Below, piece after piece: positions 10,431-54,002 of a stretch of 64,000 bases of DNA; position 1 is the stretch's first letter; each line of letters opens with the position of its first letter. The translations under genes and the position numbers were made by a program. The stretch comes from an uncultured Eubacteriales bacterium. GTDB lineage: Bacteria > Bacillota > Clostridia > Oscillospirales > Acutalibacteraceae. The notes under the pieces were generated by a model. It saw nothing but the letters and a program-made list of their open reading frames with translations, was not told the origin of the DNA and searched no databases. Where the stretch lies: contig CAKSOB010000001.1 in the NCBI GenBank assembly GCA_934476545.1, positions 96,986-160,985 on the forward strand, read 5' to 3'.

Positions 10431-11309
10431 TTAAATCAGTTCTGCAAAAATCTCTGCATCCAGTGTGGGATTTAAAGAAGTATTGATTGCCATAGAGACC
10501 AAAGAAGCCGCGCGGTCAATCAGCAAATCAATCTCTCGTGGGGTCACCACCATCTGCGCCCCTCTGGGGGATACCCGATGAGCAGTCGGCAGAGAAAACG
10601 GGATCCCGTTTTCCTCTAATAATTCCGATGCCAACGTGACAGCGTATACAACCGTAGGAACACCTATGGCAATGACCGGAACACCAAGAGTTTCTCGATT
10701 GATGGCAGGACGAGTATTCCCCACACCGGAACCGGGCGCAATGCCGCCATCGGAAAGCTGCACCGTACATCCCAACCGATGTAAGGAGCGAGATGCCAAG
10801 GCATCCACCACAATCACTGCCGACGGTTTTAGATGCTTGGTTAGACTGCTCAATAGTTCCGCCGCTTCCATTCCGGTGTTGCCCAACACATTTGGCGTTA
10901 CCGTTACCACCGGACGAAAATAGTCGTTTCCCGTTAATCGCTGCAACTCTCCGGCAATATGGCGTGTCGCTAACACCCTGTCTGCTGTTTTGGGTCCCAG
11001 TGCATCCGGTGTGATTTCTCGGTTTCCTAATCCCGCCACTAAAACAGTTCCTCTCATCGGCAGCAGCTTTTTCAGTTCTTCGGCAACGATTTTTCGGTAT
11101 CGGTTTTCTCTGTCCAAGTGGTCGCTAAACGGCTCCATTTCTACTGTAATATACGTTCCCTGTGGCTTTTGATAGCGAGATTCTTCCTGCTTCTCCACTA
11201 CCAAAGTCGTAACCCGACAGCCGTCCTGATCTCGTTGATGTAATCCTCGACTCCCCTCGGCCTCTCGATTCTCCAATGCCAAGTCTGTTCGCAAGATCAT
11301 CCGCTCCAT
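10431..11309 (-). CDS. gpr: Germination protease GPR (spore endopeptidase)
   Basis: RTDLALE near the N-terminus and [16 protein letters not shown]. Divergent from rpsT as in B. subtilis. Confidence 0.85.
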
Positions 11310-11431
11310 CTCCTCCCTATTTTCATCTACTATATATGGTGTGACAGATCCCTTGATTTATCAATCTGACACAACGGAAAGTTTTTACAGGAAATTTAGA
11401 CCAAAAACACCGTTCCTGTTGAAAAAAACAG

Positions 11432-11460
11432 TTGCATTTCTTTGCGATTCGTGCTATGAT
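11432..11460 (+). promoter_or_regulatory. Sigma-A-type promoter of rpsT (TTGCAT-17-TATGAT)
   Basis: Hexamers at 11432-11437 and 11455-11460. Confidence 0.55.
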
Positions 11461-11496
11461 TATGTTTGCATAATGAAAAAATCAGGAGGTGAAATC

Positions 11497-11754
11497 ATGC
11501 CAAACATTAAGTCTGCTAAGAAGCGTGTAAAGGTTATCGCTGCAAAGACAGAGCGCAACAAGGCAATCAACTCTGCACTTAAAACCGACATCAAAAAGGC
11601 AAACATTGCAATCGAGGCAAACGCTGAGAACAAGGCTGAAGCTGTTCGCGTTGCTCTCAGAGCAATCGACAAGGCTACTGCTAAGGGCATTCTTCACAAG
11701 AATACCGCTGCCAGAAAGAAGTCTTCTCTCGCCAGAAAGCTGAACGCTTGCTAA
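11497..11754 (+). CDS. rpsT: 30S ribosomal protein S20
   Basis: [13 protein letters not shown]... with GGAGGTG 7 nt upstream. 85 aa. Confidence 0.95.
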
Positions 11755-11776
11755 GGCAACGTTTTTCGGTGATAGT

Positions 11777-11803
11777 AACAGAGCCAATCGGCTCTGTTTT
11801 TCT
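11777..11803 (+). terminator. Intrinsic terminator of rpsT
   Basis: AACAGAGCC-AATC-GGCTCTGTT followed by a T-run. Confidence 0.75.
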
Positions 11804-11935
11804 TTACCCATTTTTCAGAATAAACAAGGGAATTTCCTACAATCTTTGCACAATGTCAGTTGACTTTTTACTGAAAATTCGGTATGATAAGCTTGTAAAC
11901 TTGTTGTGCATATGAAAAATCGGAGGTGCGTTCCC

Positions 11936-12088
11936 ATGAAAGCAAAAAAAGGTCTGAAGGGTATTTTTGGCATCGTAATGCTGGCAGGTGTTGTAGCAGC
12001 TGTCGTAGCAACTATAATCCTGTTCTTGGACAAAAAGAAAAAGGATGAGGAAGAATTGGAGCAATATCTGGACTGCTCCATTCAGTAA
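11936..12088 (+). CDS. Hypothetical small single-TM protein (50 aa)
   Basis: MKAKKGLKGIFGIVMLAGVVAAVVATIILFLDKKKKDEEELEQYLDCSIQ, with GGAGGTG 7 nt upstream and a terminator at 12095-12126. Confidence 0.5.
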   Translation: MKAKKGLKGIFGIVMLAGVVAAVVATIILFLDKKKKDEEELEQYLDCSIQ

Positions 12089-12094
12089 CACAAA

Positions 12095-12126
12095 TCCCCC
12101 GGAGAACTTTCCGGGGGACTTTTTTG
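12095..12126 (+). terminator. Intrinsic terminator
   Basis: TCCCCCGG-8 nt-CCGGGGGA followed by CTTTTTT. Confidence 0.7.
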
Positions 12127-12153
12127 CATCCATTTTTGCATCCATATAAAATA

Positions 12154-12510
12154 TTAGGCTTTATCGCCAGAGCGAGAAAGCATCGCCGCTAAATACCCAA
12201 AGAACACTGCTGCAGCAATTCCGGCAGCCGTTGCACTGATTCCTCCGAAAAAAGCGCCCAACAAACCGCTTTGCTCTACGGCTTCTTTCGTTCCCGTTGC
12301 CAATGTATATCCGAAACCGGTCAATGGTACCGTAGCGCCGGCGCCAGCAAAAGCAACCAAGGGTTCATATAAGCCCACGGCAGTTAAGGCAACGCCTGCC
12401 GTTACAAATAAAACTAAAATCCGAGCAGGGGTCAGTTTGGTAAAATCAATTAAAAGCTGTCCCACTACACAAATCAGACCGCCTACCCAAAATGTATTGA
12501 AAAATTCCAT
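12154..12510 (-). CDS. spoVAE: Stage V sporulation protein AE (SpoVAE/SpoVAEB family)
   Basis: FWVGGLICVVGQLLIDFTKLTPARILVLFVTAGVALTAVGLYEPLVAFAGAGATVPLTGFG matches the SpoVAE core. GGAGGTG is upstream of ATG 12510. Confidence 0.8.
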   Translation of the reverse strand: MEFFNTFWVGGLICVVGQLLIDFTKLTPARILVLFVTAGVALTAVGLYEPLVAFAGAGATVPLTGFGYTLATGTKEAVEQSGLLGAFFGGISATAAGIAAAVFFGYLAAMLSRSGDKA

Positions 12511-12585
12511 GTTCTTCACCTCCGAAATAGCATTTCCCAATTCCGGAAGATTATACCCATAAAAAAAGGACGCTGCTGCGTCCTT

Positions 12586-12987
12586 TTATTTTTTGGAAAA
12601 CTTATTAAATACCGAATTTTTATCCGGCACAAACAATTTGGTGCCAATGGTGCCACTGGGACATTCAAACTTCAGAAGGTCATCTCCCTCATACATCAAA
12701 TCGCCCCAATCATTTTCGCCGCACTTTCCACGCATTTTACTGGTAACAGGAAATGTTTTTGTGGTGCCGTCCTTAAATTGGAATGTCAGCTTCATTGCGG
12801 TCACACCCTTATGGGTCACCCCTTGCTGATCCACCACTTCGCCATACTCTCGCTCTGTTTTAATAAGCACTGCTTTTCGGAAATAGCGTTTTTTGCCGGA
12901 AAATCGCTTGGTTCGCACCAAAATACCGCCGACAATCAAAATTGCAATCAGTACACCGAAAATAATGTAGGATACAATCGGATTCAT
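12586..12987 (-). CDS. Hypothetical N-terminally membrane-anchored protein
   Basis: One N-terminal TM followed by a soluble beta-rich domain. GGGAGGAG SD and TTTACT-17-TACAAT promoter at about 13022-13050. Confidence 0.6.
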   Translation of the reverse strand: MNPIVSYIIFGVLIAILIVGGILVRTKRFSGKKRYFRKAVLIKTEREYGEVVDQQGVTHKGVTAMKLTFQFKDGTTKTFPVTSKMRGKCGENDWGDLMYEGDDLLKFECPSGTIGTKLFVPDKNSVFNKFSKK

Positions 12988-13280
12988 CGCTTCTCCTCCC
13001 TACTGATTAAGATAGGTCTATTGTAGCATAGTCTATCCTCAGAGTAAACTGTAAAATTACATCCCTGTTATTTGTGCATATTGTATAGTATGTGTGTAAA
13101 ATCTTGGGACAAACTTCCGTTATTGAGAAAAAGTATGCAACAACTCTCTATCCGGAAAATGAATATTTGAAAGTTAAAAATTTCATATCTGTAATCATTT
13201 TACAACTTAGTCGGGTGTTTCTTTTGGGATTTTACAAATAGTATAGAGCAGAATTTCTTTAAAAATCCGCAGTATTCCAA

Positions 13281-13347
13281 AGTTTTTTAAATTTTTTAAA
13301 CTTTTTTTAAATTTTCTATTGACATACATCAACATATCGTATATAAT
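13281..13347 (+). promoter_or_regulatory. Consensus sigma-A promoter (TTGACA-17-TATAAT) preceded by phased T/A tracts (UP-element-like)
   Basis: -35 TTGACA at 13319-13324, an exact 17-nt spacer, and -10 TATAAT at 13342-13347. Upstream are three T6-7A3 tracts with about 10-bp period at 13283-13311. Confidence 0.7.
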
Positions 13348-13353
13348 TATGAC

Positions 13354-13828
13354 ATCGCAACCGAGAAAACTTGCAAAACGGTTCTGCAAAACCTTCTAAG
13401 TTTTGCAAGTTACAAAGTTAAAATATTCATTTCGGGTTCTGTTTCCGCTGAATTTGATCGCCCAATAAGGATTTTAAGCGATCCGGTTGAGCGGAGACAG
13501 AAACAAGAGAAATAGCCACTCGGCTGTTTCTGCTCCATCCATTTCTGAAAGAAATCCCCCTTATCCCCTTTGGACTGGGTGTATTTCATTTCAAAACCTC
13601 TCGGAACGTTAGAATTGATTAGAACTACCTTCCGAAGTACAAACAGTTGACTGCAATCTTCTGTTTGAAAATTCTCTCCCGCCGCTTCTTCTCTCTTTGC
13701 GGTAGGGTAGCGAATTGCATTTGTGTCTTTCCATTCTGTGCAAAATTGGCACGGCTCCTATTTTCTTTTCGAAAATTTAAAGATTGGAAAGTGAAAATAG
13801 CCCGCCCACTGGCAGGGCTATTTTTCTT
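13354..13828 (+). ncRNA. Candidate large structured non-coding RNA of unknown family (about 470 nt; may read through to the second terminator at 13878)
   Basis: Bounded by a consensus promoter and a plus-strand-specific intrinsic terminator. There is no ATG on the plus strand between 13352 and 13880 and no credible ORF. Several helices of 6-13 bp are present (13368-79/13400-11; 13437-49/13490-502; 13498-505/13525-32; 13640-46/13661-67). All flanking genes are on the other strand. Confidence 0.5.
13796..13828 (+). terminator. Intrinsic terminator (plus-strand specific)
   Basis: TAGCCCGCC-CACT-GGCAGGGCTA followed by TTTTTCTTT. The flank on the other strand is T-poor. Confidence 0.7.
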
Positions 13829-13840
13829 TGCCTTTTTATC

Positions 13841-13878
13841 AAAAAAGACCGCTCTTAGTTGAGCGGTCTTTTTGTTTT
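13841..13878. terminator. Bidirectional intrinsic terminator (for ktrB/trkH on minus, backup for the plus-strand unit)
   Basis: A6-GACCGCTC-TTAGTT-GAGCGGTC-T5. Confidence 0.75.
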
Positions 13879-13879
13879 A

Positions 13880-15259
13880 TCAGCCTACCATCAATTTTCC
13901 GTCCGGTAAGATGGATTCGGAGTGGCGTGGTTTCCGGTTGGCAAATGCCAATCCCAACGATACCACACCGACACGTCCTACGAACATATTGATGATCAGT
14001 GCAATTTTTGGTGCTAATAAAAGATGCGGTGTAAAAGCAGCGTTAAATCCGGTTGTACTAAATCCGGATACCGATTCATACAGCGCATCAATTGCGCTGA
14101 CATCCGGCATACTGATTAAAATCACAATCGTTGTTGCCAACGACAATACCATTCCGCCTGCAAACAAGGTCAATGCCTCAAATACTGTTGTTGTATCAAT
14201 TCTGCGTTTCAGAAAAGATACCTCTGTTCTGCCACGGAATACACTGAAAATGGTTGCAACCAAAACCACAATGGTTGTGGTCTTGATACCACCCGCCGTA
14301 GAACCCGGAGAGCCGCCAATAAACATTAAACAAATGTCGATAAATTTCGTTACGGAATGTTCCGCAGCAGGATCTATCGCAGAAAAACCGGCTGTTCGGG
14401 AACTGGCAGACTGGAACAGACTGACCAACATCTTTTGAAAGAAATTATAGTCTTTCAAAGCGTGCCGATATTCTATCGTCATGATTGCTGCCGCACCCAC
14501 CACTAACAAAAATAAGGTGCTAATCAATACAACTTGGCTTTGGAATGACAAACGCTTTCGACTCTCTCGATGGAGCAGTGGGTTCAATTTCTTCAAATAA
14601 ATATCACTGACCACAATGAAGCCCAAACCGCCTACGACGATCAATCCGGTCATTGTCAGCGACACTAACGGGTCAGAAGATACAGCGGAGGCATTCAATC
14701 CAATGGAAGTGAAAATATCAAATCCGGCATTACAAAAAGAAGAAATCGCTGTAAAAACTGAAACCCACACACCATAAATACCACACATCGGGACAAAGCG
14801 AATCAACAGCAATGCTGTACCGATAAATTCTACGGAGAAGGTGAACAGAAACACGGTTTTCAGCAGATGCTTAATATCCACATTATCGGTGCCGCTGTTT
14901 TCTTTGGCAAGCGCCAAGTCCTTGATTCCCAGCTTTTGTCGAAACAGCAGCGTAAATCCTGTTGTGAAGGTTACCAATCCCAAGCCGCCTACCTGAATGA
15001 GCAACAATAAAATTACCTGCCCAATCGGCGACCAGTGCTGCCAAGTATCGTAAACATTCAGTCCGGTTACACAAGTAGCGGACGTTGCAGTAAACATTGC
15101 ATTCTCAATGGGTGTAAACGCTCCTGTCCGAGAAGAAAACGGTAACCACAGTAAACATCCACCAATTAAAATGATACCCAAAAAACTAAGTACAATAATT
15201 CGGACGGGCGCAATTCCTTTTGTTTTTTTACTACGTCGGCGTCCTAACAAGTCTTCCAT
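13880..15259 (-). CDS. TrkH/KtrB-family potassium uptake membrane protein
   Basis: About 10 TM segments with repeated pore-loop motifs (TGLNV, NAGFD, GGSPGSTAGGIKT, STTGFN). The ATG at 15259 is 8 nt after GGAAGGAG. Confidence 0.85.
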   Translation of the reverse strand: MEDLLGRRRSKKTKGIAPVRIIVLSFLGIILIGGCLLWLPFSSRTGAFTPIENAMFTATSATCVTGLNVYDTWQHWSPIGQVILLLLIQVGGLGLVTFTTGFTLLFRQKLGIKDLALAKENSGTDNVDIKHLLKTVFLFTFSVEFIGTALLLIRFVPMCGIYGVWVSVFTAISSFCNAGFDIFTSIGLNASAVSSDPLVSLTMTGLIVVGGLGFIVVSDIYLKKLNPLLHRESRKRLSFQSQVVLISTLFLLVVGAAAIMTIEYRHALKDYNFFQKMLVSLFQSASSRTAGFSAIDPAAEHSVTKFIDICLMFIGGSPGSTAGGIKTTTIVVLVATIFSVFRGRTEVSFLKRRIDTTTVFEALTLFAGGMVLSLATTIVILISMPDVSAIDALYESVSGFSTTGFNAAFTPHLLLAPKIALIINMFVGRVGVVSLGLAFANRKPRHSESILPDGKLMVG

Positions 15260-15381
15260 GAGACACACTCCTTCCCGGGAATCATTCTGTTTGTCCTATG
15301 ATACCGCAGCTTTGGGGAAAAAGCAAGAGGAGAAAAATAATGGATTTTCGAATCGATTTATAACAATTAAGAAACAAAAAT

Positions 15382-15411
15382 AAAAAAACCATGCACACTC
15401 GGTGCATGGTT
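15382..15411 (-). terminator. Intrinsic terminator downstream of tRNA-Arg
   Basis: AACCATGCAC-loop-GTGCATGGTT with a T7 run on the minus strand. Confidence 0.7.
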
Positions 15412-15416
15412 TCCTT

Positions 15417-15493
15417 TGGCGCGCTGCAAGGGACTCGAACCCCTGACCTACTGGTTCGTAGCCAGTTACTCTATCCAGCTGAGCTAGCAGCGC
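15417..15493 (-). tRNA. tRNA-Arg (anticodon ACG), CCA encoded
   Basis: The reverse complement folds as a cloverleaf: acceptor GCGCTGC/GCAGCGC, D-arm GCTC..GAGT, anticodon stem ACTGG/CCAGT with loop CTACGAA, T-arm AGGGG-TTCGAGT-CCCTT, discriminator G, CCA. Confidence 0.9.
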
Positions 15494-15569
15494 ACACTCG
15501 CTTTTCTCAAGCCAGCCTGTATATAATAACATACTGTCTCGCAAAAAGCAAGCCTTTTTTCAAATTTTT

Positions 15570-17459
15570 TTAATTTTTTTCAAATTCTTCTTGTATTTCC
15601 CGTTCTAAACGGAAAACACCGCAGCCATACCCCTCTAAAATTGCGGTTGCACCCACATCTTTGCCCAACAGCACCTCAGCAGACTGATATTCCAATGGAA
15701 GTTGAATGGTTTGCGGATACTCATTGCTGTTCAGCGCAATGAGGATTTCCTCGCTGTCGCAACGACGAATGTACGCCATCACACCATTGCACGCTGTAAC
15801 AGGGATAAATTCGCCCTCTTTGAATACAAGATGCGCAGTTCGCAGAGCACCCAGTTTTTCGTACCAAGCGAGCAGTTCTTTGTTTTCTCGTCCCCACGGA
15901 TAACCGGTGCGGTTAAATGGATCCTTATAGCCTTCTACCCCGGCTTCGTCGCCGTAATAGATACAAGGAACGCCCGGTAAAGTATACTGCATCAACGAAG
16001 CAAGGCGCATCTTTTTCAGTCCAACTTTCCACTGCTCCTTTGTCATCTTGCAGGAACATTGCCATTCTCTGCCACGATTACACATTGGTTCGCCTGCCAG
16101 TACGGTAATGGCACGCTCTGTGTCGTGGGTACCGATGTGATTCATCAGCAAACGAACAACCTGTGGCGGATAATTCTCCAAGACTGACAAAATCATTTCC
16201 ATCATATCTTCCGCTTTTGCACCGGTCAAAAAGCCCAGAACCGCATCACGGAACGGATAGTTCATAACGCTGTCCAGTTGCCCGCCCAAAAGGTAGCGAC
16301 GACGAATACCATAGGCAGTCTTGTTGGAAGCATCTTCCCATACCTCGCCCAGAACAATGGCATCGGGATCCTGCCGCTTGGCACTATCGGATAAGCTGTC
16401 AATAAAGGGATCGGGCAATTCGTCTGCCACATCCAAACGCCAACCGGAAGCGCCCAAGCTGAGCCACTTCTGCACAATGCCACCGTCCCCATTGATATAG
16501 GTATCATACTCCGGGTTGGTTTCATTTACATTCGGAAGCGTGTTAAACCCCCACCAACTCTCGTACACGTTCGGCCACTGTTGGAAGGTATACCAAGGAT
16601 AGTATGGGGACTCTTGGCTCTGATAAGCGCCTACGGCATCATAGCGCCCCTTTTTGTTGAAGTAAATACTATCGCTGCCAGTGTGGTTGAATACGCCGTC
16701 CAACAGAATTCGAATACCCAGTTTCTTCGCTTTAGCGCAAAGGGATTTAAACTCCTTTTCAGTACCGAGCATTGGGTCGATTTTACTGTAATCGGCAGTA
16801 TTGTAGCGGTGATTGGAATGGGCTTCAAAAATCGGATTTAAGTATAGGCAGGTTACCCCCAACTTTTGTAAGTAGGGTAATTTTTTCTCAATGCCTTTTA
16901 AGTCACCGCCAAAGTAATCGGAGTTTGTCACATCCCCGTTTTCATCGGGACGCCATTCCGGCTCATCAAACCAATCTTTATGATAGTGACGGTCTTCCGG
17001 AATATTACTCTTCTTTGTTTTCGAGTTAAAAAAGCGATCCGGAAAAATTTGATATAAGATTCCGCCTGCCAACCAGTCCGGCGTGGTAAATCCTTTTTTA
17101 TAGGCGGTTAACTGCCAACTGCCACGGTCACCGATGTTATCAATCACACCGACACCGCCACTGCCCCATTGCCGATCGATTCGACGGATTCCTCTGCTTG
17201 TTTGAATCTCAAAATAATAAAAATACAACCCGAAGGTTTCCGGTGTAAAATGACATTCCCACCACTCATCGTAGTCGCCTGCCATACCGCACCAAAACAT
17301 ATCGAAAATCTTTACCTGTTTGGTAGAATCTTCCTCCACACAAAGCCGGGCAGCGCTACATTTTAAATCTCGTGGAATCCGGATTTTAAAGTGAACCGGT
17401 GTTCCTTCTGCAACGGCACCCACCGGATTTCGGTAGATTGGATCTCTTGAATTAAACAT
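15570..17459 (-). CDS. GH13 alpha-glucan hydrolase (neopullulanase/cyclomaltodextrinase-like, with N-terminal Ig-like domain)
   Basis: GH13 conserved regions LLDGVFNHTG, GWRLDVADE, GEVWED and NHIGTHDTER. Confidence 0.85.
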   Translation of the reverse strand: MFNSRDPIYRNPVGAVAEGTPVHFKIRIPRDLKCSAARLCVEEDSTKQVKIFDMFWCGMAGDYDEWWECHFTPETFGLYFYYFEIQTSRGIRRIDRQWGSGGVGVIDNIGDRGSWQLTAYKKGFTTPDWLAGGILYQIFPDRFFNSKTKKSNIPEDRHYHKDWFDEPEWRPDENGDVTNSDYFGGDLKGIEKKLPYLQKLGVTCLYLNPIFEAHSNHRYNTADYSKIDPMLGTEKEFKSLCAKAKKLGIRILLDGVFNHTGSDSIYFNKKGRYDAVGAYQSQESPYYPWYTFQQWPNVYESWWGFNTLPNVNETNPEYDTYINGDGGIVQKWLSLGASGWRLDVADELPDPFIDSLSDSAKRQDPDAIVLGEVWEDASNKTAYGIRRRYLLGGQLDSVMNYPFRDAVLGFLTGAKAEDMMEMILSVLENYPPQVVRLLMNHIGTHDTERAITVLAGEPMCNRGREWQCSCKMTKEQWKVGLKKMRLASLMQYTLPGVPCIYYGDEAGVEGYKDPFNRTGYPWGRENKELLAWYEKLGALRTAHLVFKEGEFIPVTACNGVMAYIRRCDSEEILIALNSNEYPQTIQLPLEYQSAEVLLGKDVGATAILEGYGCGVFRLEREIQEEFEKN

Positions 17460-52998: not shown

Positions 52999-53670
52999 TT
53001 GAGGAGAGAAGCAGTAGCAACGGGTGATACCGTCGAAAAGGCATTTGCCAATGCGTGTGAAATGCTGGGTGTCGCAGAAACAGAAGCGGAGTGTGAACTT
53101 CTCGAAAAACCAACGAAGAAAACTTTCGGATTATTCGGCGGAAACCCGGCAAAGGTTCGGGCTATTGCACGAGAAAAGAGTCCGTCAGAACGGGCAGCGG
53201 ATTATATGTGTGACGTAATTACCGCAATGGGCGTTACAGAAGCAACCGTGACCGTTCGGGAGGAACGAGAGGAAGATTCGGAGCTGGAAATTAACGGCAA
53301 CAATGTACGAATGATCATCGGACACCGTGGAGAAACACTGGATGCGCTGCAATATTTGGCGTGTTTGGTGGCGAACACCGAGAAGGATGGGTACCACAGA
53401 GTAACATTAGATGTGGGAAACTATCGGGAAAAGCGGAAGGAAACATTGGAGCAGCTGGGCCGCAAAATGGCACAGAAAGCATTGCGTACAGGTCGTCCCT
53501 GTGCGCTGGAACCAATGAATCCGTATGAACGGCGAATCATTCATGCAGTGGTGCAAGAGATTGACGGCGTTGTTTCCTGGTCAGACGGCCAGGACCAAAA
53601 GCGACATATTGTGGTAGGTCCGGAGGGTTCCGAGCGAATCCGTCGGACAGCTCGCAAGCAGAAAAGTTAA
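52999..53670 (+). CDS. jag: Jag/KhpB RNA-binding protein (Jag_N-KH-R3H)
   Basis: R3H motif EPMNPYERRIIH. TTG start 10 nt after AAAGGAG. Confidence 0.85.
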   Translation: MRREAVATGDTVEKAFANACEMLGVAETEAECELLEKPTKKTFGLFGGNPAKVRAIAREKSPSERAADYMCDVITAMGVTEATVTVREEREEDSELEINGNNVRMIIGHRGETLDALQYLACLVANTEKDGYHRVTLDVGNYREKRKETLEQLGRKMAQKALRTGRPCALEPMNPYERRIIHAVVQEIDGVVSWSDGQDQKRHIVVGPEGSERIRRTARKQKS

Positions 53671-53701
53671 AAAACCGTGGCTTTAAGCCACGGTTTTTTT
53701 C
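53671..53701 (+). terminator. Intrinsic terminator after jag
   Basis: CCGTGGCT-TTA-AGCCACGG followed by T8. Confidence 0.8.
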
Positions 53702-53815
53702 TTTGCCCTAAAATTCCGATTTCAACCATTTTTTAAAAGCGTGTGGAAAATTACAAAATCGCCTAATTTTATTTTTACCACAGATAGAAAAGAAGAAAAC
53801 AGGATAGATTTTCTA

Positions 53816-53844
53816 TTGACAATACAGCTGTTTTTGGATATATT
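53816..53844 (+). promoter_or_regulatory. Sigma-A-type promoter of surface-protein cassette A (TTGACA-17-TATATT)
   Basis: Hexamers at 53816-53821 and 53839-53844. The partial palindrome ATAGATTTTCTAT abuts the -35. Confidence 0.6.
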
Positions 53845-53850
53845 ATACAT

Positions 53851-54002
53851 AATAGGGAGTTCTTGGAAATTTACAGAAAGGAGGAACAGTAAGCCAAGAA
53901 CCCACTCGAATTATGAATACGGAAAACATCTCGAACGAATATGGAAAGAAGAATGACAAGAAAAATTGCAGCAAACCAATCTTATGGAAGAGGAGATGTA
54001 CC
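53851..54002 (+). promoter_or_regulatory. Conserved 5-prime leader A (hairpin 53855-53903 with an AAAGGAGG-containing loop; ATGAATACGGAA element)
   Basis: Near-identical blocks are shared with leader B: TTCTTGGAAATTYACAGAAAGGAGRAAC...CCAAGAACCC...AATTATGAATACRGAA...GGAGATGTAC. Confidence 0.5.

Follow-up and report, generated by a model that had tools for sequence, protein, structure and literature searches.

A predicted structured RNA of about 475 nucleotides from uncultured gut Clostridia, a candidate for an uncatalogued family of large orphan bacterial RNAs

Introduction

Bacterial RNAs longer than about 400 nucleotides (nt) that combine many covarying helices with invariant loops are rare, and the large RNAs that are understood (ribosomal RNA, RNase P, transfer-messenger RNA, group I and II introns) mostly carry out sophisticated biochemistry. 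A regulatory RNA of about 500 nt is RNAIII of Staphylococcus aureus, which has many hairpins and several pyrimidine-rich loops; it encodes delta-haemolysin, its loops carry UCCC, and the targets that it regulates are known. Among the orphan classes, OLE RNA (RF01071) is a large stand-alone non-coding RNA (ncRNA) of anaerobic Bacillota with the membrane partner OapA (PMC3413148, PMC12265935). ROOL and GOLLD are orphan large structured bacterial RNAs that assemble by RNA-RNA contacts (PMC12286853). Finally, raiA/ModT of Clostridia is a structured ncRNA of spore-forming Bacillota that has its own promoter and terminator and is linked to sporulation phenotypes (PMC10861870, PMC11706538). The DNA analysed here is a stretch of 64,000 nt, termed the window, from an uncultured Eubacteriales bacterium of the Acutalibacteraceae (GenBank assembly GCA_934476545.1, contig CAKSOB010000001.1, positions 96,986 to 160,985). 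At 13354-13829 of its plus strand lies a unit of about 475 nt that has its own promoter before it, its own terminator after it and no conserved reading frame. An earlier note on this DNA had proposed the unit as a candidate gene for a large structured ncRNA whose class was not recognised. The proposal is supported by evidence from conservation, structure, strand, coding potential and Rfam searches, and the RNA appears best read as a previously uncatalogued family among the large orphan structured bacterial RNAs.

Conservation of the transcription unit

The unit is delimited by the following features, given in window positions.

13283 to 13316, plus strand: T/A tracts TTTTTTAAATTTTTTAAACTTTTTTTAAATTTTC, three T6-7A3 runs abutting the -35 element, as read from the sequence
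13319 to 13347, plus strand: sigma-70-type promoter TTGACA-17-TATAAT, a 12/12 consensus match, with the start predicted near 13354
13354 to 13829, plus strand: predicted ncRNA transcript of about 475 nt, bounded by promoter and terminator, with conserved islands and covarying helices throughout
13794 to 13829, plus strand: intrinsic terminator of the RNA, -17.3 kcal/mol, z -4.2, with a U-run
13841 to 13878, both strands: second, bidirectional terminator, -21.2 kcal/mol on the plus and -20.1 kcal/mol on the minus strand

Contigs of relatives were gathered mostly via the adjacent DUF2500 protein and its homologs; one locus (L019, from an Oscillospiraceae bacterium) was found separately by a scan with an RNA pattern. 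Ten contigs are from the same species as the window and are 95-100% identical over the intergenic region. Seven further lineages (L011, L014, L015, L019, L025, L029 and L035, of which L015 is an uncultured Clostridium sp.) have DUF2500 proteins that are 53-74% identical (53-98% over all eight lineages), and the intergenic gap is about 900-1000 nt in all these lineages. When the eight lineages are aligned, the best-conserved part of the roughly 900-nt intergenic region extends from the -35 element through the first terminator, where conservation stops. The flanks are much more diverged, although a few short conserved blocks occur before the promoter as well. All eight close lineages have TTGACA-17-TATA(A/G)T and a terminator, which delimit a predicted RNA of 437-513 nt. 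The conserved islands are, from 5' to 3', TTGACA/TATAAT, GUUUUGCAAGUU, UUCAUUU, CUGUUUCCGCUGA...UGAGCGGAGRCAG and CCCC...GGGUG, followed by AACCUCGCGGA, GACUGCAAUC, UCUCUCU, GCAUUUGUG, UUCGAAAAUUU and the terminator.

Three distant loci, L037 (54% DUF2500 identity), L038 and L039 (both about 40%), came from a profile search with ten DUF2500 proteins. The promoter TTGACA-17-TATA(A/G)T is also found in L037 and L039 and takes a TTGACT form in L038, and a terminator is present in all three. L037 (1602-1960, minus strand) has a diverged 3' half alone, in which hairpins P2-P5 (see below) are lost and a ACUGCAAU loop sits on a new stem. L038 (2580-3120, minus strand) and L039 (2868-3360, minus strand) have two or three UUGCAA motifs and retain P2 and P3 with other sequence; the helix with the CU-rich loop is kept in both and the GACUGCAAUC loop is missing. 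Conservation in relatives, which the earlier note had named as a check on its proposal, is thus borne out: promoter, RNA and terminator are kept in eight lineages, and diverged versions occur in three.

Pattern scans extended the family little. Among GTDB genomes, nine matches were obtained, two of them true and the others within high-GC coding sequence, and the scan of JGI metagenomes returned the window species, one chance match and nothing else. The RNA has no match among phage and plasmid records, and the viral contigs scanned do not contain the motif pattern. The scan patterns were too strict for diverged members, as the outgroup loci later showed. These loci lie beyond the reach of the patterns, so that the family extends further, and is more plastic, than strict patterns could detect. 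Judged from these comparisons, the predicted RNA is best read as a structured RNA family with a narrow known distribution, namely uncultured gut Clostridia.

The promoter had been called textbook in the earlier note, and it is the sole 12/12 match within 11000-16000, an interval in which promoter-like sites are at chance level (9 found versus 9.4 expected). The first terminator had been proposed to work on the plus strand only, which agrees with its tail, TTTTTCTTT on the plus strand and merely TATTTTC on the minus strand. Across lineages this terminator is 97% paired, and both sides changed in 5 of 14 pairs. The second terminator, at about -21 kcal/mol on either strand, is bidirectional as claimed. 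It is missing in L014 and has other sequence in the remaining lineages; most likely it serves trkH or acts as a back-up, and it lies outside the conserved RNA.

Two further points of the earlier note are correct for the window but carry less weight than it gave them. The T/A tracts are present and resemble an UP element or a bent stretch of DNA, and the DNA upstream of the promoter is A/T-rich in all lineages, but the number of tracts varies even within the species: one contig of the same species (L002) is without 20 nt of them. The leader of L002 also has a 6-nt insertion relative to the window, and in another contig of the species (L003) a 19-nt deletion takes out half of a 5' leader hairpin that is specific to the window. 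These changes within one species indicate that the leader hairpin and the number of tracts are dispensable. The plus strand is also free of ATG, as noted, between 13349 and 13911. No ATG-free gap on the two strands of the window is longer than this one of 562 nt; 8.6 ATG would be expected, and 0 of 5000 shuffles are ATG-free. The homologous RNAs, however, have 3-8 ATG in the other close lineages and up to 13 in the outgroups. ATG depletion was therefore rejected as a family trait, the gap being specific to the species.

Secondary structure and covariation

The helices reported for the interval are present, and the plus strand has a minimum free energy of -157 kcal/mol (z -6.5 versus shuffles, compared to -5.2 for the minus strand). 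For the whole predicted transcript z is -6.5 to -7.1. The fold was derived from independent folds of each lineage and from RNAalifold, and covariance models of the two halves were used to align the eight lineages. Each lineage's own fold has the same order of elements, built from stems of unrelated sequence: a leader, block A, P2-P9 and the terminator. The 5' leader is variable among lineages, and the elements that follow it are given below.

13400 to 13411, plus strand: block A, GUUUUGCAAGUU, built around UGCAA, almost invariant and largely single-stranded
13425 to 13433, plus strand: B-block UUCAUUU, following block A, with invariant columns
13437 to 13502, plus strand: P2, a long hairpin whose base (CUGUUUCCGCU / AGCGGAGACAG) is conserved, whose distal stem covaries and whose tip is variable
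13506 to 13534, plus strand: P3, a hairpin whose sequence differs in each lineage, from the per-lineage folds
13541 to 13592, plus strand: P4, a short hairpin, and P5 (CCCC...GGGUG, outer helix), then a UUUCAUUU block, from folds and covariation
13595 to 13636, plus strand: E-block AACCUC(G/U)CGGAA and P6, whose loop has the conserved AGAAC.GAUU..AACUAC
13640 to 13667, plus strand: P7, a hairpin with an invariant GACUGCAAUC at 13649-13658 and the hexaloop CUGCAA
13670 to 13716, plus strand: P8, a long irregular hairpin with a 13-nt CU-repeat loop, UUCUUCUCUCUUU, at 13686-13698
13717 to 13791, plus strand: G-block GCAUUUGUG, then P9 (CUUUCCA / UUGGAAAG), which encloses a variable insert and the UUCGAAAAUUU block

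This secondary structure is held by compensatory changes. In the 3' half, 27 of the 55 pairs changed on both sides, compared to 13.4 +/- 2.5 in shuffles (0/500), and there are 60 extra pair types, compared to 50.6 (0/500). Moreover, 78% of the cells are paired, versus 35-50% when the partners are slid. In the 5' half, P2 has 95% of its cells paired and 7 of 20 pairs doubly changed, with a covariation score that was matched in 0/500 shuffles; the hairpin is stable (-33.5 kcal/mol, z -8) and has numerous U-G pairs. P4 is a hairpin of 5-8 base pairs with unrelated sequence in each lineage. The low formal counts for P3 and P4 come from the MAFFT and covariance-model alignments, which lose register in this part, and not from an absence of the hairpins; re-alignment with the covariance model left the register of both unrepaired. 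P5 is 71% paired, with four pairs changed on both sides, and helices 1-3 of the P6 region are 52-68% paired. The P7 loop is invariant in the eight lineages, on a stem that is 84% paired and has five pairs changed on both sides. In P8, UCUCU is invariant, and both sides changed in 9 of 9 inner and 5 of 8 outer pairs. Finally, P9 is kept in L019 through two double changes, and its variable insert is missing in L029.

Two further pairings were considered. The E-block has an alternative partner in the 5' leader, CCGAGA at 13361-13366, which competes with P6. Both helices are possible in several lineages, one double change (window versus L035 and L015) favours the leader/E-block helix, and the two could form alternative folds. 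A pseudoknot between block A and the P7 loop was proposed by RNAalifold, and an A-to-G change in L025 improves the pairing; the two elements are otherwise both invariant. Block A is absent from L037, which has a P7-type loop, and the P7 loop is absent from L038 and L039, which have UUGCAA.

Other roles for the repeated motifs found little support. A reading of UGCAA as a repeated protein-binding motif in the style of CsrB is unsupported, the motif occurring 1-5 times per RNA with mostly two conserved copies. Homodimerisation through the palindromes UUGCAA and UUUUCGAAAA is weak as an explanation, as these are not retained in all lineages. The motifs UUGCAA(A/G) and CUGCAA(U) resemble the anticodon loop of the transfer RNA (tRNA) for Cys, a likeness that was not adopted as an explanation.

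The covariance model of the 3' half also gives a weak full-length match elsewhere in the window, at 53670-53870 on the minus strand (19 bits, rough E 0.007). This is A/T-rich intergenic DNA between two plus-strand open reading frames (ORFs), and the match is probably noise.

Coding potential and strand

We next consider whether the interval could encode small proteins from non-ATG starts, the candidates being an ORF from 13647 to 13862 or a 110-amino-acid (aa) minus-strand gene called in two strains (L002 and L006). The first, noted earlier for its TTG start, exists (71 aa) and has no Pfam match, as is the case for the ORFs of the interval in general; ORFs of 47-71 aa occur on both of its strands. 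No reading frame is conserved across lineages, and stop-free segments vary in frame and position. Where translated peptides match between lineages, the matches are short and fall in all six frames, as islands of nucleotide conservation would give, and the insertions and deletions between lineages are not in multiples of three. The gene caller's 110-aa product speaks for a coding function in the two strains, but its ORF is missing from most strains of the same species. Translation of the interval is thus scarcely credible.

When the terminator is removed, the promoter strand has a z between -4.3 and -10 in 8/8 lineages, and the opposite strand is always weaker. The many U-G pairs in the helices become A-C mismatches on the other strand and hence fit only the plus strand, along which promoter and terminator tail are both oriented. 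As the earlier note had pointed out, all neighbouring genes lie on the minus strand, hence the RNA cannot be a leader. On this evidence we conclude that the predicted RNA is untranslated and the leader of no gene.

Comparison with known RNA families

A search of the window against Rfam 15 (4227 models) at gathering thresholds yields one match, a tRNA, so that the earlier note's view of the class as unrecognised is upheld. With a permissive threshold (E <= 10), 12950-13950 matches only amino-acid-leader and small-RNA models on the two terminators, far below their thresholds, the best being Thr_leader with 33.6 bits (threshold 55). No published description turned up in full-text searches, those for the invariant motifs included, and there is none in 200 of the 408 supplementary files of PMC8040213.

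Individual classes were rejected as follows. A T-box leader does not fit, RF00230 giving no match at E <= 10 and there being no plus-strand gene downstream; the T-box-like GGGUGGU is one strand of the covarying P5, about 240 nt from the terminator. 6S RNA is a rod of about 180-200 nt with a central bubble that resembles an open promoter, and the RNA at hand is 437-513 nt long, has multiple hairpins and does not match RF00013. An RNA of a mobile element or phage, such as the omega RNA of IS605/IscB, was rejected since the gene is fixed beside DUF2500 in 11 lineages and has no phage, plasmid or viral match; the IS605-orfB-II model scores 18.8 bits against a threshold of 88.

The RNA might still be a highly diverged member of a known family (6S, OLE, ROOL, raiA, T-box or a riboswitch) that the covariance models missed. 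The host, one of the Clostridia, and the large size are reminiscent of OLE and raiA, and GGGUGGU of some lineages is like the T-box core. However, GGGUG pairs in P5 with no gene downstream, the size and architecture are unlike 6S or raiA, and the permissive search gave only look-alikes of the terminators. Such a relationship is very improbable indeed. The Pfam labels of the called neighbours are TrkH, DUF2500, SpoVAC, S20, Gpr and SpoIIP only, none of them OapA, OapB or OapC, for which no dedicated search was made.

Genomic context

The RNA gene is surrounded by the sporulation genes spoVAC, gpr and spoIIP and lies among the following features.

12586 to 12987, minus strand: gene for a DUF2500 membrane protein (PF10694), by Pfam match
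13120 to 13187 (13120-13134 and 13159-13185), no strand assigned: conserved DNA blocks TTATTGAGAAAAAGT and ATGAA-N17-TTTCA, between the DUF2500 and RNA promoters
13880 to 15268, minus strand: TrkH, from the ORF list and its Pfam label
15417 to 15493, minus strand: tRNA-Arg(ACG), by match to a tRNA model

In 11/11 lineages with sufficient upstream DNA, the RNA gene is divergent from DUF2500, while the gene on its other side differs among lineages (TrkH, HTH or PGM). The assembly collection has the DUF2500 protein indexed in 854 blocks. In L038, an Abi_alpha gene lies between the RNA gene and DUF2500. A low-coverage metagenome contig (L030) carries, at 1-1576, the species' RNA gene and the end of trkH with 97.7% identity. 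Its homology to the window ends exactly at 13283, the edge of the T/A tracts, and tRNA-Gln(CTG) and an unrelated ORF replace DUF2500. Either the promoter boundary has undergone an insertion or rearrangement, or the contig was assembled as a chimera.

Between spoVAC and rpsT, at about 11906-12088 on the plus strand, is a small ORF (about 50 aa). It likely encodes a membrane peptide (MKAKKGLKGIFGIVMLAGVVAAVV...), and its counterpart is called as a gene of 48-50 aa in nearly all related loci.

The divergent promoter region contains, alongside ATGAA-N17-TTTCA, the conserved block TTATTGAGAA. ATGAA-N17-TTTCA consists of inverted half-sites and was found in 8 of 11 lineages. In L038 and L039 the TTATTGAGAAAAAGT block is inverted and present in two copies, which argues for recognition at the level of DNA. 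The blocks at 13120-13187 look like candidate transcription-factor sites for one or both of the divergent promoters.

Such motifs, conserved in flipped orientation just upstream of the RNA gene, raise the question whether the conservation of the whole interval acts on DNA, with a long regulatory or insulating zone (promoters, operators, terminators) between DUF2500 and trkH and the RNA as a by-product. Some internal blocks are partly palindromic (UUGCAA, UUCGAA), and trkH is faced by two terminators. The double compensatory changes and the U-G pairs, however, point to RNA and not to DNA sites. Moreover, trkH is not always on the far side, and a 12/12 promoter aimed at 475 nt without a gene is retained in 11 lineages. 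We therefore consider conservation of the interval as DNA to be very unlikely.

Discussion

Taken together, the unit at 13354-13829 probably encodes a genuine structured ncRNA of a new family that acts in trans. In the mechanism we propose, the predicted RNA would be made from its own sigma-70 promoter with an A/T-rich element and end at the intrinsic terminator, independently of its neighbours. It would fold into hairpins P2-P9, with stems that drift in sequence yet stay paired, and would put fixed sequences on show: block A with its UGCAA, the hexaloop CUGCAA on P7, the CU-repeat loop that P8 presents, and GCAUUUGUG. The folded RNA may then act in trans, with the fixed loops facing one or more partners, as a ribonucleoprotein (RNP) scaffold or as a regulator.

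The best candidate for a partner would be the membrane-anchored DUF2500 protein of the divergent neighbour with its OB-like barrel, in parallel to OLE RNA with OapA. In a structure model of this protein (pLDDT 78), an N-terminal transmembrane helix (residues 3-28) and a very basic stretch, RTKRFSGKKRYFRK, accompany a beta-barrel, which best matches the DUF2500 structures 3rd4, 3q6c and 2l0c and then, with weak scores, OB-fold domains. By analogy, the protein might bind the invariant loops in a membrane RNP, with its transmembrane helix, basic linker and cytoplasmic OB-like barrel, although we regard this arrangement as doubtful. The RNA itself could instead be catalytic or self-assembling.

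An alternative partner would be messenger RNA (mRNA). The RNA may be a base-pairing regulator in the style of RNAIII, in which the UCUCUCU loop of P8 and other fixed loops serve as seeds on purine-rich ribosome-binding regions of mRNAs from genes elsewhere. Its length of about 475 nt and its build of multiple hairpins would be suitable, as would a strong promoter and terminator of its own, and the invariant apical CU-repeat loop stands on a covarying stem and is also found in L038 and L039. L037, however, is without this loop, no target mRNA was identified, and small RNAs of this kind seldom need at least eight conserved helices. Tests of complementarity are uninformative because generic purine runs can all pair with the CU repeat. 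We rate this explanation as unlikely; it is a sub-case of the proposed trans-acting RNA, not its opposite.

Several points weigh against a new trans-acting RNA family with a DUF2500 partner. The transcript and its ends are predictions from sequence, and the partner and mode of action are purely inferred. As the lineages number 8-11, the statistics rest on few independent changes, and the formal counts lend little support to P3, P4 and parts of P6, where the alignment is out of register. The linkage to DUF2500 is partly built in, since most loci were retrieved through DUF2500 homologs, and in L030 tRNA-Gln rather than DUF2500 adjoins the RNA gene. Finally, DUF2500 proteins are also found in enterobacteria such as Klebsiella and Salmonella, which are not known for such an RNA.

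OLE, ROOL, GOLLD and raiA are orphan classes under active study, to which the RNA of about 475 nt adds a clearly bounded candidate together with an initial model of its structure. The source is a prevalent lineage of uncultured gut Clostridia, and the DUF2500 protein offers a specific candidate partner. Compared with RNAIII, it differs in having no ORF and in that its loop is a CU repeat. Like raiA, which is linked to sporulation phenotypes, it has its own promoter and terminator, and its gene lies amid sporulation genes; raiA, however, is about 200 nt long and known from thousands of species, and its curated model does not match here. As for ROOL and GOLLD, the partly self-complementary invariant UUGCAA and UGCA might allow similar contacts. 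The RNA is, however, smaller, not associated with phages or plasmids and without a match to their models, and the palindromes are not universal; self-assembly is pure speculation by analogy. With OLE it shares an intricate fold, invariant patches, a nearby gene for a small membrane protein and a function that is not evident from sequence. The two do not match in sequence or structure, OLE is about 600 nt long, and the distribution found here is far narrower. Moreover, OLE lies in an operon with oapA, whereas the present predicted RNA is divergent from the DUF2500 gene. If the proposed complex of RNA and DUF2500 protein is true, it would give the widespread, uncharacterised DUF2500 family its first function and bacteria a second OLE-like membrane RNP.

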